The notes under the pieces were generated by a model. The model ran no database searches, had not been told where the DNA came from, and saw only the letters and a list, made by a program, of their open reading frames with translations. A stretch of 4,841 bases of DNA from a virus (lineage: Duplodnaviria; Heunggongvirae; Uroviricota; Caudoviricetes), in the IMG/VR virus record IMGVR_UViG_2802429251_000006; one strand, given 5' to 3'. Positions 1 through 4,255 of this stretch are shown one piece after another. A program made the position numbers and the translations under genes. Each line of letters begins with the position of its first letter. The stretch's first letter is position 1.

Positions 1-125
1 CCACGGGAATATCTGCGACAGCGGACCAGTAATGGGTTAAGTGATAACAGGTGTCTGGAAATATAGGGGCAAATCCATTGTGTAAATGTTAACAAATGTG
101 CGTTTTATTTGATCTGATTCGCTGT

Positions 126-155
126 TTGAGCGTCCAAAACAACGGTATATATAAT
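126..155 (+). promoter_or_regulatory. Candidate sigma70 promoter for the lipoprotein moron (TTGAGC, 18-bp spacer, TATAAT)
   Basis: Seen in sequence: TTGAGC at 126-131 and a perfect TATAAT at 150-155, about 30 nt upstream of the ATG at 185; GAGGA Shine-Dalgarno at 177-181. Hexamer match only; no transcript data. Confidence 0.35.
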
Positions 156-184
156 CCTTTACTATATGACATATGTGAGGAAAA

Positions 185-613
185 ATGGGTTTTCGTAGCG
201 CATCAATTCTTACGTTGATTATTAGTGGGATTATTATCGGGTGCACTGATGCTGTATCGACAAATTATCATGACCGTACATCATATTACTCCGATAAAGC
301 AATAGAGACACAGTATGTGAGTTCATCTGAACGTACTTCTGATGTTAGTGAGGATATCCGTCTGTATGCCCATCAAATCAAGAGCGCCATCGAAAAACAG
401 TTCGGGGATGCGAGTAAGTATTCAGGAAAAGAGTGTACACTGAGAATGCATATGGCCCCGAATGGCCTTCTACTGGAGGTTAAAAGAGAAAGTGGAGACC
501 TCGATTTATGTCGTGAAGCGATGAATGCGATAAAGAATGCTGATATACCTGCCCCCCCTTCGCCGGAAGTATATAAAGTATTTCAAAATGGGGTGCTGGA
601 TTTTAAACCCTGA
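185..613 (+). CDS. Lipoprotein with TolA domain III-like C-terminal domain (142 aa)
   Basis: N-terminal signal peptide MGFRSASILTLIISGIIIGC with lipobox IIGC. The C-terminal ~85 aa (YAHQIKSAIEKQFGDASKYSGKECTLRMHMAPNGLLLEVK...PAPPSPEVYKVFQNGVLDFKP) aligns nearly motif for motif with my recollection of the E. coli TolA C-terminus (YAGQIKSAIESKFYDASSYAGKTCTLRIKLAPDGMLLDIK...PKPPSQAVYEVFKNAPLDFKP). SD GAGGA 4 nt upstream of the ATG. Confidence 0.8.
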   Translation: MGFRSASILTLIISGIIIGCTDAVSTNYHDRTSYYSDKAIETQYVSSSERTSDVSEDIRLYAHQIKSAIEKQFGDASKYSGKECTLRMHMAPNGLLLEVKRESGDLDLCREAMNAIKNADIPAPPSPEVYKVFQNGVLDFKP

Positions 614-763
614 TATTTATTGTTTTGTAATAAACGGTTTCGGCTTAGGTTTGTTCTGACACAACTACGGCACTGAGCTAAATCTAGCGGATAGTCAGCT
701 CTGAGCCAGTGGCGGACGTAACAACTACTATTGCTGAGATTTTAATGGATTGAGGAGCAAGAA

Positions 764-1159
764 GTGGGATTAAAGAAAATCGTTATGTTGACTTTTTGGG
801 TCAGTTTTGTTGCGGGATGCACACCTTTACACCCTTCAGATTGCCACAAAACTACTGCTACAGGTAGTTGCAGTTCAGGACGCTGGGATGATCAGGATGA
901 ATGGGGGGCGCAAGCGCGGGGAATCAGAGCTGCAATTAATGCCAAACTTGATGAGCCGCATAACTGGAAAGGGAAAAAATGCAGGTTGCATATGGAATTC
1001 TCTCAGGATGGCACGGCGTTAAAAATATCTACCAGTAACGGTGATAAAGCCTATTGCGAAGCGATAAAGTCCGCAGCTCATAAAGCCAAATTTCCGGCCT
1101 TCAACAATCCGGAAGTCTACAGAGATTTTCAGAAATCTGGCTTTGACATGCGAGGTTAG
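764..1159 (+). CDS. Second, diverged lipoprotein with TolA domain III-like C-terminal domain (131 aa, GTG start)
   Basis: GTG start at 764 preceded by GAGGAG (752-757) with a 6-nt spacer. Signal peptide MGLKKIVMLTFWVSFVAGC with lipobox VAGC. The C-terminal region keeps the TolA-III spacing pattern (KKCRLHMEFSQDGTALKI...GDKAYCEAIKSAA...FPAFNNPEVYRDFQ) but is more diverged than the upstream paralog. Confidence 0.7.
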   Translation: MGLKKIVMLTFWVSFVAGCTPLHPSDCHKTTATGSCSSGRWDDQDEWGAQARGIRAAINAKLDEPHNWKGKKCRLHMEFSQDGTALKISTSNGDKAYCEAIKSAAHKAKFPAFNNPEVYRDFQKSGFDMRG

Positions 1160-1284
1160 CTCTTCAATTACTATATCTCATTCATAGCAAACTGACAGAT
1201 TTGATGATGTTCTATATACGAAACCTGTGATGTCAAGTCTGAGCTAATACAAATAAACATAATATCAGAGAAATACATTTTATT

Positions 1285-1306
1285 AGCTCGCTACGGCGAG
1301 CTTTTT
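1285..1306 (+). terminator. Rho-independent terminator (7-bp GC-rich stem, 4-nt loop, T-run)
   Basis: AGCTCGC (1285-1291), loop TACG, GCGAGCT (1296-1302), followed by TTTT (1303-1306). The reverse orientation has no T-tract, so it is unidirectional on +. Confidence 0.6.
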
Positions 1307-1410
1307 ATATTGCATCGTCTCCAGCATATATATCAATTAAGGCTCTGATTGATGTGTCTGGAAGCCTACACATAATAACTATGCCATCCGTTCCGTGCGG
1401 AGGTGAGGCT

Positions 1411-1626
1411 ATGAAATCCATGGACAAAATTTCAACAGGCATTGCCTACGGCACCTCCGCAGGCAGTGCTGGCTACTGGTTTTTACAGCTGCTCGATAAA
1501 GTCACGCCCTCACAGTGGGCAGCAATAGGTGTGCTGGGTAGCCTGGTATTTGGCCTGCTGACGTACCTGACAAACCTTTATTTCAAGATTAAAGAAGACA
1601 AGCGTAAGGCTGCACGGGGAGAGTAA
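1411..1626 (+). CDS. S: Class II pinholin, phage 21 S21-type, with dual-start motif (71-aa antiholin from ATG 1411, 68-aa holin from ATG 1420)
   Basis: Translation [71 protein letters not shown] matches my recollection of S21 closely: Met1-Lys2-Ser3-Met4 dual start, Gly/Ala/Ser-rich SAR-like TMD1, hydrophobic TMD2, basic C-terminal tail. GGAGG at 1399-1403 sits 7 nt before the ATG at 1411. The track ORF starting at 1354 is an in-frame extension with no RBS. Confidence 0.9.
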
Positions 1627-1630
1627 TTCA

Positions 1631-1975
1631 ATGACTCAAAAATATGAACTGATTGTGAAAGGGATCCGCAATTTTGAGAATAAAGTTACGGTAACTTTAG
1701 CGTTACGGGACAAAGAACGCTTTGACGGTGAAATTTTTGACCTGGACATCTCGCTGGACCGTGTTGAAGGTGCCGCGCTGGAGTTTTATGAGGCAGCAGC
1801 CAGAAGGAGCATCAGACAGGTCTTCCTGGATGTTGCTGCCGGGTTATGTGAAGGGGATGAGCTGTCGCCGGAAAAGCGCCCCATAATTTTAGAGGCGCAG
1901 AATGTGTGGATAACCTACAAAGGAAAGCTACCGGGAAGAATTACTGGTTCTCTGAAGACTCCGCCGAAATGGTAA
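1631..1975 (+). CDS. ydfR: DUF1327-family protein (YdfR-like), conserved between holin and endolysin in Qin-type cassettes
   Basis: Translation MTQKYELIVKGIRNFENKVTVTLALRDKERFDGEIFDLDISLDRVEGAALEFYEAAARRS... resembles, as recalled, YdfR of the E. coli K-12 Qin prophage, which also lies between essQ and rrrQ. GGGGAG SD 7-8 nt upstream; starts 4 nt after the holin stop. Family assignment is from memory. Confidence 0.75.
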   Translation: MTQKYELIVKGIRNFENKVTVTLALRDKERFDGEIFDLDISLDRVEGAALEFYEAAARRSIRQVFLDVAAGLCEGDELSPEKRPIILEAQNVWITYKGKLPGRITGSLKTPPKW

Positions 1976-2213
1976 TTTCACCAGCATATTTTTCTTCCAG
2001 TAATACCGCCAGCCACTTGAAAGAATTTTGTTGTTGCTGGGACCATTTGGGGTTGAGTGATTCAAGCTGGAGCGATGCCAGTGTTGGTTGCATTTGTTCC
2101 TTGGGAATTGAGAATGCCAGATATGAAAATGCGACAGTAAGGGCATTTACATCATCCCGAAGCTTGGAAATGCAGTCGAGCAACTCCTGTAGAGAAATGG
2201 TGCTATTGTCCAT
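1941..2213 (-). CDS. Hypothetical small protein (90 aa) encoded antisense in the gap between the DUF1327 gene and the endolysin
   Basis: Minus-strand ORF with ATG at 2213 preceded by GAGAGG and a 7-nt spacer (an ideal SD). Translation MDNSTISLQELLDCISKLRDDVNALTVAFSYLAFSIPKEQMQPTLASLQLE... has a protein-like composition, whereas the same-region + strand ORF (1906-2238) is Cys/Ser-rich and looks like antisense noise. Its 3' end overlaps the last 35 nt of the DUF1327 gene. No homolog recognised. Confidence 0.3.
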   Translation of the reverse strand: MDNSTISLQELLDCISKLRDDVNALTVAFSYLAFSIPKEQMQPTLASLQLESLNPKWSQQQQNSFKWLAVLLEEKYAGEITISAESSENQ

Positions 2214-2318
2214 AAACAATCCTCTCTATTGTATTTAACTATTCCTTGCCTGATTCAACAGGCCGGGACAGATAAACATATCCAGGGTTCAGAAACCGAT
2301 AAATCCTGATAAATATCC

Positions 2319-2861
2319 ATGAACGTAAAAATCAGATACGGCCTGTCGGCTGCCGTTCTGGCACTGATTGCCGTCGGTGCGCCTGCGCCTGATATTCTCG
2401 ACCAGTTTCTGAATGAAAAAGAAGGTAACCACACAACGGCATACCGCGATGGTTCCGGCATCTGGACCATCTGTCGGGGTGCCACGGTGGTGGATGGAAA
2501 ACCCGTTTTTCCCGGTATGAAACTGTCGAAGGAAAAATGCGACCAGGTTAACGCCATTGAACGGGATAAGGCGCTGGCATGGGTGGAGCGCAATATTAAA
2601 GTGCCACTGACCGAACCACAGAAAGCGGGTATAGCGTCATTTTGTCCCTATAACATTGGCCCCGGTAAGTGTTTCCCGTCGACGTTTTATAAGCGGCTGA
2701 ATGCCGATGATCGTAAGGGGGCATGCGAGGCGATTCGCTGGTGGATAAAAGATGGTGGGCGTGATTGCCGCCTGACAAAAGGGCAGAAGAATGGCTGTTA
2801 TGGGCAGGTCGAGCGGCGCGATCAGGAAAGCGCACTGGCGTGCTGGGGGCTGGAGCAATGA
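2319..2861 (+). CDS. R: SAR endolysin (phage 21 R / RrrQ-type lysozyme, T4-lysozyme-like glycoside hydrolase)
   Basis: 180-aa translation begins MNVKIRYGLSAAVLALIAVGAPAPDIL, a weakly hydrophobic Gly/Ala-rich signal-anchor-release domain, then the catalytic triad E35-x8-D44-x5-T50 (EGNHTTAYRDGSGIWT). Overall it resembles the Qin/phage 21 lysozymes as recalled. The stop overlaps the Rz start (ATGA at 2858-2861). Confidence 0.92.
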   Translation: MNVKIRYGLSAAVLALIAVGAPAPDILDQFLNEKEGNHTTAYRDGSGIWTICRGATVVDGKPVFPGMKLSKEKCDQVNAIERDKALAWVERNIKVPLTEPQKAGIASFCPYNIGPGKCFPSTFYKRLNADDRKGACEAIRWWIKDGGRDCRLTKGQKNGCYGQVERRDQESALACWGLEQ

Positions 2862-3394
2862 AAATTAATCCGGATCTTATAGGCGTTGTCGTTATTGCTG
2901 GCCTTTCGGTCGCTCTCGTCAAGAGTTGCTCTCACGCCAGTAATCTTCAGAGCGATAACGACGTTCTGCGAAGTGACAACTCTATGCTGGGGCAGGTAAT
3001 CGCCACCCAGGCATTCAACTTCAATCGATTCAATCAGGTTGCAGAACATGCCAACAGTCTTAACTCCCTGATCGACACCAGCACCGAAAAAACCGTAATC
3101 GAATACCGGGAGATTCTCCGCCGTGAAAAAACCTGTGATCTGCCTGTTCCTGCTGATATCGCTGGTGGGTTGCTCGAATACACGTACCGTTTACGTGCCA
3201 GCGCCATGCACACCGATACCGGCAGACCTAATGAAGCCTATGATCGTACCGCTACCACCAGCTCAATGACCTACTGCCAAGCTGTCTTGTGGATTAAGCC
3301 GCTACTGGCGTTGATAGAAAAAGGAAATAATAATTTTTCGAGTATTCGTGAAATTGATGAGTTGCGTTACAGACCATCTGAGCATGGCCAGTAA
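2858..3394 (+). CDS. Rz: i-spanin Rz (178 aa, type II inner-membrane protein)
   Basis: ATG at 2858 overlaps the endolysin stop. N-terminal TMD LIGVVVIAGLSVALV, then a periplasmic domain of the expected size. A classic Rz1 lipoprotein is embedded in its +1 frame. The track ORF from 2765 is an upstream in-frame extension across the endolysin 3' end. Confidence 0.8.
   Translation: MKINPDLIGVVVIAGLSVALVKSCSHASNLQSDNDVLRSDNSMLGQVIATQAFNFNRFNQVAEHANSLNSLIDTSTEKTVIEYREILRREKTCDLPVPADIAGGLLEYTYRLRASAMHTDTGRPNEAYDRTATTSSMTYCQAVLWIKPLLALIEKGNNNFSSIREIDELRYRPSEHGQ
3123..3269 (+). CDS. Rz1: o-spanin Rz1 (48 aa proline-rich outer-membrane lipoprotein, fully embedded in the +1 frame of Rz; GTG start)
   Basis: Hand translation of the +1 frame: (M/V)KKPVICLFLLISLVGCSNTRTVYVPAPCTPIPADLMKPMIVPLPPAQ*. 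Signal peptide with lipobox LVGC; mature region has 8 Pro in 32 residues and a second Cys. GGGAG at 3108-3112 lies 10 nt upstream of the GTG. The frame opens at 3099 with no in-frame ATG before the hydrophobic core, so GTG 3123 is the likely start. Too short to appear in the supplied ORF track. Confidence 0.75.
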   Translation: MKKPVICLFLLISLVGCSNTRTVYVPAPCTPIPADLMKPMIVPLPPAQ

Positions 3395-3562: not shown

Positions 3563-4255
3563 TCAAATCTTATCTAACTCATTATAGGCTTCGATAATAA
3601 AAATTCTGATTTTAATAAGGCATGATTCAATGAAAGGAATTACTTCATGGTCATTCCCATGGAATCTTATTTTTTTCTCTTCGGTAATGACTATGTTTAA
3701 AGGTACACCATTACCACTTCTTTGTAATTTCCCATTTTCGAAAGTAAAGTCTTCTAATTTTTTGCCATTGATGTGGTTGTTTTTAAAGAGAATTTTTGCT
3801 GAGCTTCCTGCTGTGATTAAACCAAAACCATCTACGCTCACACTTAGGTCTTTAACAGAACTCTCTTCTCTTAAGGGGATTGGTTGTCTGTGCTTTACTT
3901 CATTAGTGAGATTACACATCATTTCCAACCAAGATTCGCCAGTGTGATAATCCTGTATAGAAGTAAAAATTTTATATAATGGAGAAGATGATGGTGGGTT
4001 TATTTTTAGCGTCTTTGAGAAAAATTTATCAATAAACTCTTTTTTTCCGTAAGGGAAATATATTTTGGGGCGCTCATCATTACTGCGTGGAGAAATATAT
4101 TTATCATAGGTATCATTAGCGAGATACTCTAAGGAACTTCGTAAGTTTTCCAAAATAGCTTTGACTTTTACAGGCTTGATATGCTGTGTCTGTCTCATTA
4201 TGTCAAGACTTTCTTCAACTTCTTGCAATAAGTCCAACGAGCCTTCTCTAGACAT
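3563..4255 (-). CDS. Hypothetical 230-aa cytoplasmic protein; AT-rich cargo (moron) gene convergent on the lysis cassette
   Basis: Minus-strand ORF with ATG at 4253-4255 preceded by a strong AAGGAG SD (10-nt spacer). Translation MSREGSLDLLQEVEESLDIMRQTQHIKPVKVKAILENLRSSLEYLANDTYDKY... has no signal peptide or TMD. GC content is clearly lower (roughly mid-30s percent by eye) than in the adjacent lysis genes (about 50 percent). No family recognised. Confidence 0.75.
   Translation of the reverse strand: MSREGSLDLLQEVEESLDIMRQTQHIKPVKVKAILENLRSSLEYLANDTYDKYISPRSNDERPKIYFPYGKKEFIDKFFSKTLKINPPSSSPLYKIFTSIQDYHTGESWLEMMCNLTNEVKHRQPIPLREESSVKDLSVSVDGFGLITAGSSAKILFKNNHINGKKLEDFTFENGKLQRSGNGVPLNIVITEEKKIRFHGNDHEVIPFIESCLIKIRIFIIEAYNELDKI

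Follow-up and report, generated by a model that had tools for sequence, protein, structure and literature searches.

Two predicted lipoproteins with TolA's C-terminal domain are cargo of an Escherichia coli lambdoid prophage and may act as decoys for Tol-dependent colicins and phages

Group A colicins and filamentous phages both enter through TolA, their shared gateway in the periplasm. The fold of its C-terminal domain III in Escherichia coli (TolAIII; Pfam PF06519; PDB entries 1TOL, 1S62, 2X9A and 3QDP/3QDR) runs in the order α1-β1-β2-α2-α3-β3 and includes a pair of disulfide cysteines. Here we describe a stretch of 4841 bp from the virus record IMGVR_UViG_2802429251_000006 (the window), which covers late genes of a lambdoid prophage from E. 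coli, and in which two neighbouring genes, called P1 and P2 below, encode small predicted lipoproteins built on this domain.

Two ligand sites on TolAIII have been mapped through published structures and mutagenesis. Colicin A binds through β2 (L375-P380) and makes cation-π contacts to K368, K379 and K396, the first of which pairs with the essential Tyr58 of the colicin. The N-terminus of TolB, colicin N and the N1 domain of the phage protein g3p share β3 (L417-K420), to which they bind by β-strand augmentation, an interaction that relies on the backbone more than on side chains. Either of the single substitutions D418P and K420P in TolA abolishes binding, and leads to a full tol phenotype with resistance to colicins and phage. 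The dissociation constant of TolA is 1 µM for colicin N and about 40 µM for TolB, and a contact between TolA and Pal is disputed in the literature. Filamentous phages that depend on TolA use conjugative pili, such as the F-pilus, as their primary receptors; the PDB entry 2X9A holds the complex of TolAIII with the g3p of phage IF1, which adsorbs to I-pili.

Interference with this gateway has precedents. In 1993, Levengood-Freyermuth, Click and Webster are said to have found that free periplasmic TolAIII gives wild-type cells tolerance to colicins E1, E2, E3 and A. Like P1 and P2, that construct places an isolated domain III in a TolA+ cell, and it is the functional precedent for a decoy; it was reportedly soluble, artificial, overproduced and leaky, whereas P1 and P2 are natural, diverged and predicted to be lipid-anchored. 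Periplasmic g3p (pIII) N1 sequesters TolA, lowering the uptake of fd by 4 logs and altering sensitivity to colicin A. Expression of pIII in the host thus hits the same TolA-g3p interface and blocks Tol-dependent entry, but it occupies the TolA of the host, whereas P1 and P2 would mimic TolA and occupy the invader. Small outer-membrane lipoproteins of phages and plasmids, such as Llp of T5, Cor of phi80 and N15 and TraT of the F plasmid, protect their carrier by blocking a host receptor (FhuA, OmpA). P1 and P2 resemble them as small lipoproteins of mobile elements, and differ in copying a domain of the host receptor instead. No relation in sequence or fold, and no PADLOC or Pfam match, links P1 or P2 to these exclusion lipoproteins.

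Both proteins consist of a lipoprotein signal peptide, a linker of 25-35 residues and TolA domain III, arranged as follows.

185 to 613, plus strand: P1, a lipoprotein of 142 residues with the lipobox IIGC (Cys20), a disordered linker (residues 21-50) and TolA domain III at residues 55-142 (nucleotides 347-610)
764 to 1159, plus strand: P2, a lipoprotein of 131 residues with a GTG start, the lipobox VAGC (Cys19), a Cys-loop linker (residues 20-45) and TolA domain III at residues 46-131 (nucleotides 899-1156)

The assignment to PF06519, for which the gathering threshold is 25 bits, was obtained for P1 with 82.6 bits (E 2.4e-23) and for P2 with 54.6 bits (E 1.3e-14). In phmmer searches of the PDB sequences, residues 55-142 of P1 aligned with residues 334-421 of E. 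coli TolA (E 5e-28) and residues 51-129 of P2 with residues 341-419 (E 5e-9). AlphaFold2 predicted both domains with a pLDDT of about 90, and the preceding linkers with low confidence. For both predicted models, the top structures found by Foldseek were E. coli TolAIII, the P1 model superposing on 2x9a_B with a root-mean-square deviation (rmsd) of 0.6 Å over 88 columns (target TM score 0.96) and the P2 model on 3qdp with an rmsd of 1.1 Å over 86 columns (target TM score 0.92). Cys363 and Cys388 (TolA numbering), which form the disulfide, are kept in both proteins. The β3 segment reads V-L-D-F-K-P in P1 and P-L-D-F-K-P in TolA, so that L-D-F-K-P is identical; in P2 it is F-D-M-R, a conservative replacement made up entirely of β-formers. 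Alignment and fold comparison therefore both bear out an earlier suggestion, made in a first-pass annotation of this DNA, that the two genes encode lipoproteins with TolA domain III. The same annotation had held the first protein to be very close to the TolA C-terminus, and here only the homology stands, the closeness having been overstated: over 88 domain residues, identity is 52/88 (59%) between P1 and TolA, 27/88 (31%) between P2 and TolA and 25/88 (28%) between P1 and P2.

The lipoboxes, which had also been pointed out before, were confirmed with a PROSITE-type rule read from the sequence (Cys at position 15-35, a hydrophobic h-region and Lys or Arg in the n-region). The signal peptides MGFRSASILTLIISGIIIGC of P1 and MGLKKIVMLTFWVSFVAGC of P2 have a hydrophobic core, and carry R4 and K4/K5, respectively, in the n-region. 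In both proteins, the +2 residue, after the Cys predicted to be lipidated, is Thr and not Asp, which points to a tether in the outer membrane; by the +2 rule, Lol-dependent sorting to that membrane is the most likely fate of P1 and P2. The signal of P2 depends on the GTG start at 764, whereas the RefSeq start is the ATG at 785 (window 764-785; 9687-9708 in L002, the uninterrupted relative of this prophage in E. coli ECC-1470) and drops the positively charged n-region. The GTG start is supported by its alignment with the ATG of a plasmid homologue, behind an identical ribosome-binding sequence, GGATTGAGGAGCAA. The mature N-terminus of P2, CxPLHPSxCHKTTATGSCSSGRWDDQDEWG (window 821-898), contains an extra Cys pair (C27, C36) and is nearly invariant across genera, which suggests that the linker has a function in addition to tethering. 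Behind its lipobox, P0209, the short relative nearest to P2, has a similar pair of Cys residues.

The features of full-length TolA are absent from both proteins. Neither has the N-terminal transmembrane anchor that contacts TolQ and TolR or the long helical domain II; in place of these stands the lipoprotein signal peptide, and there is no link to TolQR or to the proton motive force. The genes lie in the late region of a prophage and not in the ybgC-tolQRA-tolB-pal operon, which was seen in another locus (L053). Against a full-length TolA profile of 387 positions, the matches are limited to positions 293-386 (P1) and 304-382 (P2). With 107.8 and 53.7 bits, P1 and P2 both fall below the equivalog cut-off of NF007065 (213). 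For TIGR02794 (cut-off 59.45), P2 is again below with 47.2 bits, and P1 exceeds it with 75.6 bits through a match to the C-terminus only, which explains the PGAP name 'TolA'. P1 is not a TolA equivalog, and its RefSeq name, 'cell envelope integrity protein TolA', is over-annotated and can mislead automated analyses. Public annotation thus already names the domain, P2 being listed in RefSeq as 'TolA C-terminal domain-containing protein', and PHROG 5772, which contains both P1 and P2, is listed as of unknown function.

The position of the genes supports the view that P1 and P2 are cargo, accessory to a lambdoid prophage of the Qin/Rac-like kind and placed in its Q-to-holin slot. On the plus strand of the window, the order is P1, P2, holin, DUF1327/YdfR, lysozyme and Rz with embedded Rz1. 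In L002, it is Q antiterminator, tRNA-Ile, tRNA-Arg, DUF3927, P1, P2, essD holin, ydfR, lysozyme, Rz, terminase and portal, so that the pair occupies the interval between Q with its two tRNAs and a P21-type lysis cassette (Q to S). We take this slot to be the position of stx in Stx phages, and the location of the pair in L002 agrees with what the first-pass annotation had claimed on this point, as do the cargo status and the terminator of the unit. Lambdoid phages without P1 and P2 match the window only from about 1373-1396 onward; the pair is thus inserted between genes that are adjacent in related phages, as a moron is. Other prophages hold different cargo in the same Q-S slot. The G+C content is about 0.39-0.46 in the cargo and 0.48-0.56 in the lysis genes. 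The arrangement shares with the cargo slot of Stx phages the order Q, tRNAs, cargo and S, a terminator of its own and a lower G+C content, and differs from it in that the cargo is a mimic of an envelope protein and not a toxin. Only 1 of 50,697 phage genome records (mEp460_ev081) carries either gene, so that P1 and P2 are dispensable cargo and not core parts of the virion or of lysis; a role as a virion or lysis component was rejected on this count.

Three elements around the pair bear on its expression.

1 to 77, plus strand: 3' end of an IS3-family insertion sequence (IS), the transposase of which reads toward P1; the insertion lies 107 bp upstream of P1
126 to 155, plus strand: candidate sigma-70 promoter for P1 (TTGAGC-18-TATAAT), a 10/12 match to the consensus that ends 30 nt before the ATG
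1285 to 1310, plus strand: strong intrinsic terminator after P2 and upstream of the holin, with a stem-loop at 1285-1302 (7-bp stem, 5 GC pairs, 4-nt loop) and a T-run

The terminator stem-loop (1285-1302) belongs to the cargo and not to a generic region upstream of the holin, and the gene of a P1 variant of 66% identity in another prophage is also trailed by two strong terminators. Promoter-like sites are not enriched in the region (5, against 3.9±2.1 in shuffled sequences), and the interval between P1 and P2 contains no promoter-like site. The unit had been regarded as a self-contained moron; its position and terminator hold, but the promoter is a weak 10/12 match, not enriched over shuffles and not conserved among variants. 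Transcription from the Q-dependent late promoter would reach P1 and P2 in any case. The IS element stands between that promoter and the two genes. Bases 1-66 encode the C-terminus of the transposase in translation, an uninterrupted relative matches the window from base 78 on, and in H31/L061 the element that matches these first bases bears the annotation 'IS3 family transposase'; we assume it to be IS2-like. Read-through transcription from this element could be a possible supply for P1 and P2.

The pair is a mosaic of two independent acquisitions, joined at a junction that can be placed to the base.

614 to 615, no strand: mosaic junction at which the P1 module gives way to the P2 module; three other prophage contexts with P1 are homologous up to base 614 and not beyond

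The DNA homology that the P1 module shares with other prophages carrying P1 begins about 330 bp upstream of the ATG and stops at base 614, one base beyond the stop codon, and in the window the segment common to other prophages is 78-614. For P2, DNA homology to the loci L003-L010 is limited to 727-1160, a segment common to plasmid and chromosomal members of the family. When the domain sequences were joined by neighbour-joining, the nearest relative of P1 outside its own family was E. coli TolA, and the nearest relatives of P2 were other short lipoproteins, at a much greater distance. Other lambdoid prophages carry variants of P1 (91% and 66% identity) in their Q-S slots with no P2 beside them, and the neighbours of these variants include an AraC-type regulator, PmrD, a gene for a SASA-domain esterase and DUF826. 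The junction at 614, the solitary occurrences and the closer relation of P1 to TolA than to P2 together lead to the conclusion of two acquisitions. A tandem duplication, which had been suggested earlier from the apparent paralogy of the genes, was rejected: P1 is 59% identical to TolA and 28% to P2, the distances and the junction are those given above, and each gene is found alone elsewhere. In the prophages with the 91% variant, a sequence of about 180 bp flanks the P1 gene on both sides (L015 4672-4860 and 5561-5760, corresponding to L002 8769-8952); recombination of the P1 module may have left it as a footprint.

Both genes encode functional proteins under purifying selection. This follows from pairwise ratios of non-synonymous to synonymous substitution (NG86 dN/dS), which among P1 variants are 0.09-0.34 in the domain and 0.31-0.59 in the linker. 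For P2 against 34 homologues, they are 0.03-0.21, linker included, and 0.02-0.12 for the linker in most comparisons. The idea of diversifying selection put forward for the pair was thus dropped, the pairwise values being below 0.6 throughout and at most 0.34 in the domains (0.09-0.34 in that of P1, 0.03-0.21 in P2). A recent copy of the host tolA was rejected as well, dS between P1 and the 3' end of K-12 tolA being saturated at about 2.4.

The two families differ in their distribution. P1 is essentially confined to E. coli and Shigella (46 clusters), and was found in 888 of 5426 complete E. coli genomes (16%), with 950 of 952 places chromosomal and at least 99% identity in 782 genomes. The P2 family comprises 370 clusters (79-98% identity), which come from Citrobacter, Enterobacter, Klebsiella/Raoultella, Serratia and Shigella; its members in Enterobacter, Citrobacter and Serratia stand alone in the chromosome. 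A species-level scan for P2 returned 31 loci in about 13 enterobacterial genera, with 18 unrelated flanking contexts, and phage lysis genes adjoin the family member only at the Shigella locus of that scan. Among the 5426 E. coli genomes, 1269 contain P2, in 825 chromosomal and 525 plasmid places. In PLSDB, 917 plasmids match P2, about 600 of them at 80-90% identity. One chromosomal P2 homologue adjoins GmrSD-type and HEPN-domain genes, which are candidate defence genes (L007-L010, e.g. L007 6001-8736); the other chromosomal contexts are unrelated, and no general defence-island context is claimed for P2.

Three plasmid or plasmid-related loci of the P2 family were inspected (L050 6001-6432, L051 7001-7393 and L052 7001-7393). 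On a conjugative plasmid of the IncK2/Z type (I-complex) and on a related Shigella contig, a P2-family gene of 88-89% identity lies about 105 bp downstream of a nikB-type relaxase gene; this 105-bp gap contains no promoter and no GC-rich terminator, only an AT-rich hairpin. On pO157, the gene stands between the hok/psiAB region and toxB. A third family, represented by a TolA-III lipoprotein of 144 residues with the lipobox LITAC and about 35% identity to P2, occurs on about 310 Klebsiella and Enterobacter plasmids, and the copy inspected (L054 5812-6246), on a conjugative plasmid of Klebsiella (IncFIB/FII), has a thioredoxin-fold gene as its neighbour. Among 1.84 billion representative sequences, a search without a profile returned 333 relatives; among the best 146 of these, 85 are of at most 175 residues, and at least 47 of those 85 have a lipobox. 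As cargo, P1 and P2 reside mostly in Qin/Rac-like prophages. In E. coli FDAARGOS_1279 (L061 3787-4047), an IS3-family element lies upstream of a P1 copy annotated without its N-terminus, P2 being intact; this locus is a remnant of a Rac-like prophage (trkG, ynaK), in which the module persists despite decay.

The explanation we favour, and to which we give nearly an even chance, is that P1 and P2 act as decoys tethered to the outer membrane, with no coupling to the TolQR motor, and make the cell tolerant to Tol-dependent colicins or filamentous phages. It infers for both proteins an outer-membrane location, expression in the lysogen, binding of Tol ligands and a protective phenotype. Exported as lipoproteins, they would hold an isolated TolA domain III beneath the outer membrane, a site that we propose is well placed for catching ligands as they enter the periplasm. 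There, they would present a TolA-like surface for β-strand augmentation (β3, L417-K420) and compete with TolA. Ligands that need energised TolA, such as colicin translocation domains, the N1 domain of g3p and, in the case of TolB-dependent colicins, the N-terminus of TolB, would bind the decoy and stall. Lacking a transmembrane helix and domain II, P1 and P2 should be unable to couple to TolQR or to transmit its force. The lysogen, or the plasmid host in the case of the P2 relatives, would thereby become tolerant to group A colicins, to Tol-dependent filamentous phages or to both. Since the affinity of TolA is about 40-fold higher for colicin N than for TolB, a decoy at moderate levels could capture invaders and leave Tol-Pal function largely unharmed. 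The recurrence of this kind of gene on mobile elements, in the Q-S slots of other prophages, on P2-family plasmids and on third-family plasmids, supports a decoy, and its presence on conjugative plasmids fits a protection from filamentous phages that adsorb to pili and use TolA.

Several observations weigh against such decoys. The contact lysines for colicin A are partly lost in P1, which keeps K379 and K396 but has His at 368, and wholly lost in P2 (K368E, K379S, K396H), which makes trapping of colicin A through β2 doubtful. Free TolAIII reportedly makes cells leaky, a fitness cost noted in the 1993 work of Levengood-Freyermuth et al. The relatives of P2 are stand-alone chromosomal genes in many genera, and the nearly invariant Cys-loop linker of P2 suggests an additional interaction. 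Expression of P1 and P2 might be late only, from pR': the -10 element of the candidate promoter is TGTAAT in the 91% variant, and no equivalent lies upstream of the 66% variant. PADLOC models gave no match for P1 or P2 at E <= 0.1, and full-text literature searches, which were not exhaustive, returned no paper on TolA-domain lipoproteins of prophages or plasmids. Two leads from the literature were set aside: the 'TolA' induced in prophage CP-933O of EDL933 is irrelevant, the gene being a tail-fibre gene, and the induction of tolA in soil concerns the chromosomal gene.

Alternatively, the fold may serve another partner. P2, and perhaps P1, could be an adaptor that binds a different envelope protein or ligand through the TolA-III fold and the Cys-loop, having reached the prophage by incidental hitch-hiking. 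With only 31% identity to TolAIII, diverged contact residues, a mature N-terminus held nearly invariant (dN/dS 0.02-0.12 in most comparisons) and stand-alone copies in many unrelated chromosomal neighbourhoods of about 13 genera, P2 would suit such a role. The size and diversity of the class of short proteins that contain TolA-III only (85 of the best 146 relatives of at most 175 residues, at least 47 with a lipobox) point the same way. Yet augmentation depends on the backbone more than on side chains, so that P2 may still bind TolA ligands, and its strong tendency in E. coli to sit on mobile elements (525 places on plasmids) favours a role related to conflict; on balance, we regard the adaptor as somewhat unlikely. 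That P1 and P2 are non-functional relics, i.e. tolA fragments produced by illegitimate recombination and passively carried, is in our view highly improbable. The plain PGAP name 'TolA' for P1, the existence of truncated copies and the often cryptic state of the carrier prophages are what would be expected of relics, but each gene has gained an entire lipoprotein signal peptide along with a ribosome-binding site, about 780 genomes hold the reading frames unbroken and with an identity of at least 99%, dN/dS is 0.03-0.34 and the P2 family is conserved across genera.

The location of the genes, in a late operon directly upstream of the holin, invites a further explanation, in which P1 and P2 are sabotage proteins of the envelope expressed late. 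Transcribed from pR' with the lysis cassette, a tethered TolAIII would bind the N-terminus of TolB and block the TolA-driven release of Pal, causing a transient tol phenotype (weak outer membrane and vesiculation) that aids lysis or the release of progeny. The β3 strand that binds TolB is conserved; cells that lose the TolA-TolB contact are reported to show the full tol phenotype, including leakiness of the outer membrane, and modulation of the TolB interaction has already been proposed as a route to regulated production of vesicles. Against this, the cassette already has both spanins, Rz and Rz1, to deal with the outer membrane, the holin is set apart from P2 by a terminator, and the affinity of TolA for TolB is low (40 µM). 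Moreover, the genes are missing from all but one of the 50,697 sequenced phages, and relatives of P2 occur on plasmids and chromosomes without nearby lysis genes. We therefore consider sabotage unlikely.

The remaining features of the window follow the cargo.

1411 to 1626, plus strand: P21-type (pin)holin with the dual start MKSM, first gene of the lysis cassette (Pfam PF04971, E 1.8e-35; essD in L002)
YdfR gene; lysozyme, 2319 to 2861; Rz, 2858 to 3394; Rz1, 3123 to 3269; all plus strand: rest of the lysis cassette (PF00959 and PHROG spanin families)
1941 to 2219, minus strand: open reading frame (ORF) of 92 residues, PHROG 2411 (function not assigned), opposite the YdfR gene, with which it overlaps at the 3' end of that gene
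3563 to 4255, minus strand: ORF of 230 residues, PHROG 13652 (function not assigned), between Rz and the terminase genes

The lysozyme has a hydrophobic N-terminus (LSAAVLALIAVGAPAP) that is typical of signal-anchor-release endolysins. In L002, the spot equivalent to the 92-residue ORF is interrupted by an ISEc52 element. The 230-residue ORF (3563-4255) has no match in Pfam, NCBIfam or PADLOC; its region has a G+C content of about 33%, against about 50% in the lysis genes, and it looks like a second cargo gene in the opposite orientation. An Rfam scan of the window returned no RNA family.

Taken together, P1 and P2 show a known domain in a variant that is new in its architecture and ecology, and this variant is widespread on mobile elements. 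To our knowledge, the natural resistance known so far consists of receptor loss or immunity proteins. We propose, tentatively and at well short of an even chance, that lipid-anchored isolated TolA domain III proteins are a widespread, undescribed form of receptor-mimic defence on mobile elements, which disarms Tol-dependent colicins and pilus-specific filamentous phages. Its carriers would be prophages (P1 family), IncK2/Z plasmids and pO157 (P2 family) and Klebsiella and Enterobacter plasmids (third family), and the tandem of P1 and P2 would combine two decoys of different specificity. Should P1 and P2 tune TolB-Pal instead, they would be natural tools for studies of outer-membrane stabilisation and of vesicles. 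If the proposal holds, bacteria would have a new way of becoming tolerant to bacteriocins and phages, through a natural decoy of a receptor domain that prophages and plasmids spread, and this would bear on colicin- and phage-based therapeutics and on competition in the gut. On conjugative plasmids, such decoys would offset the vulnerability to phage that pili create, and might help to explain why these plasmids tolerate the risk of pilus phages.

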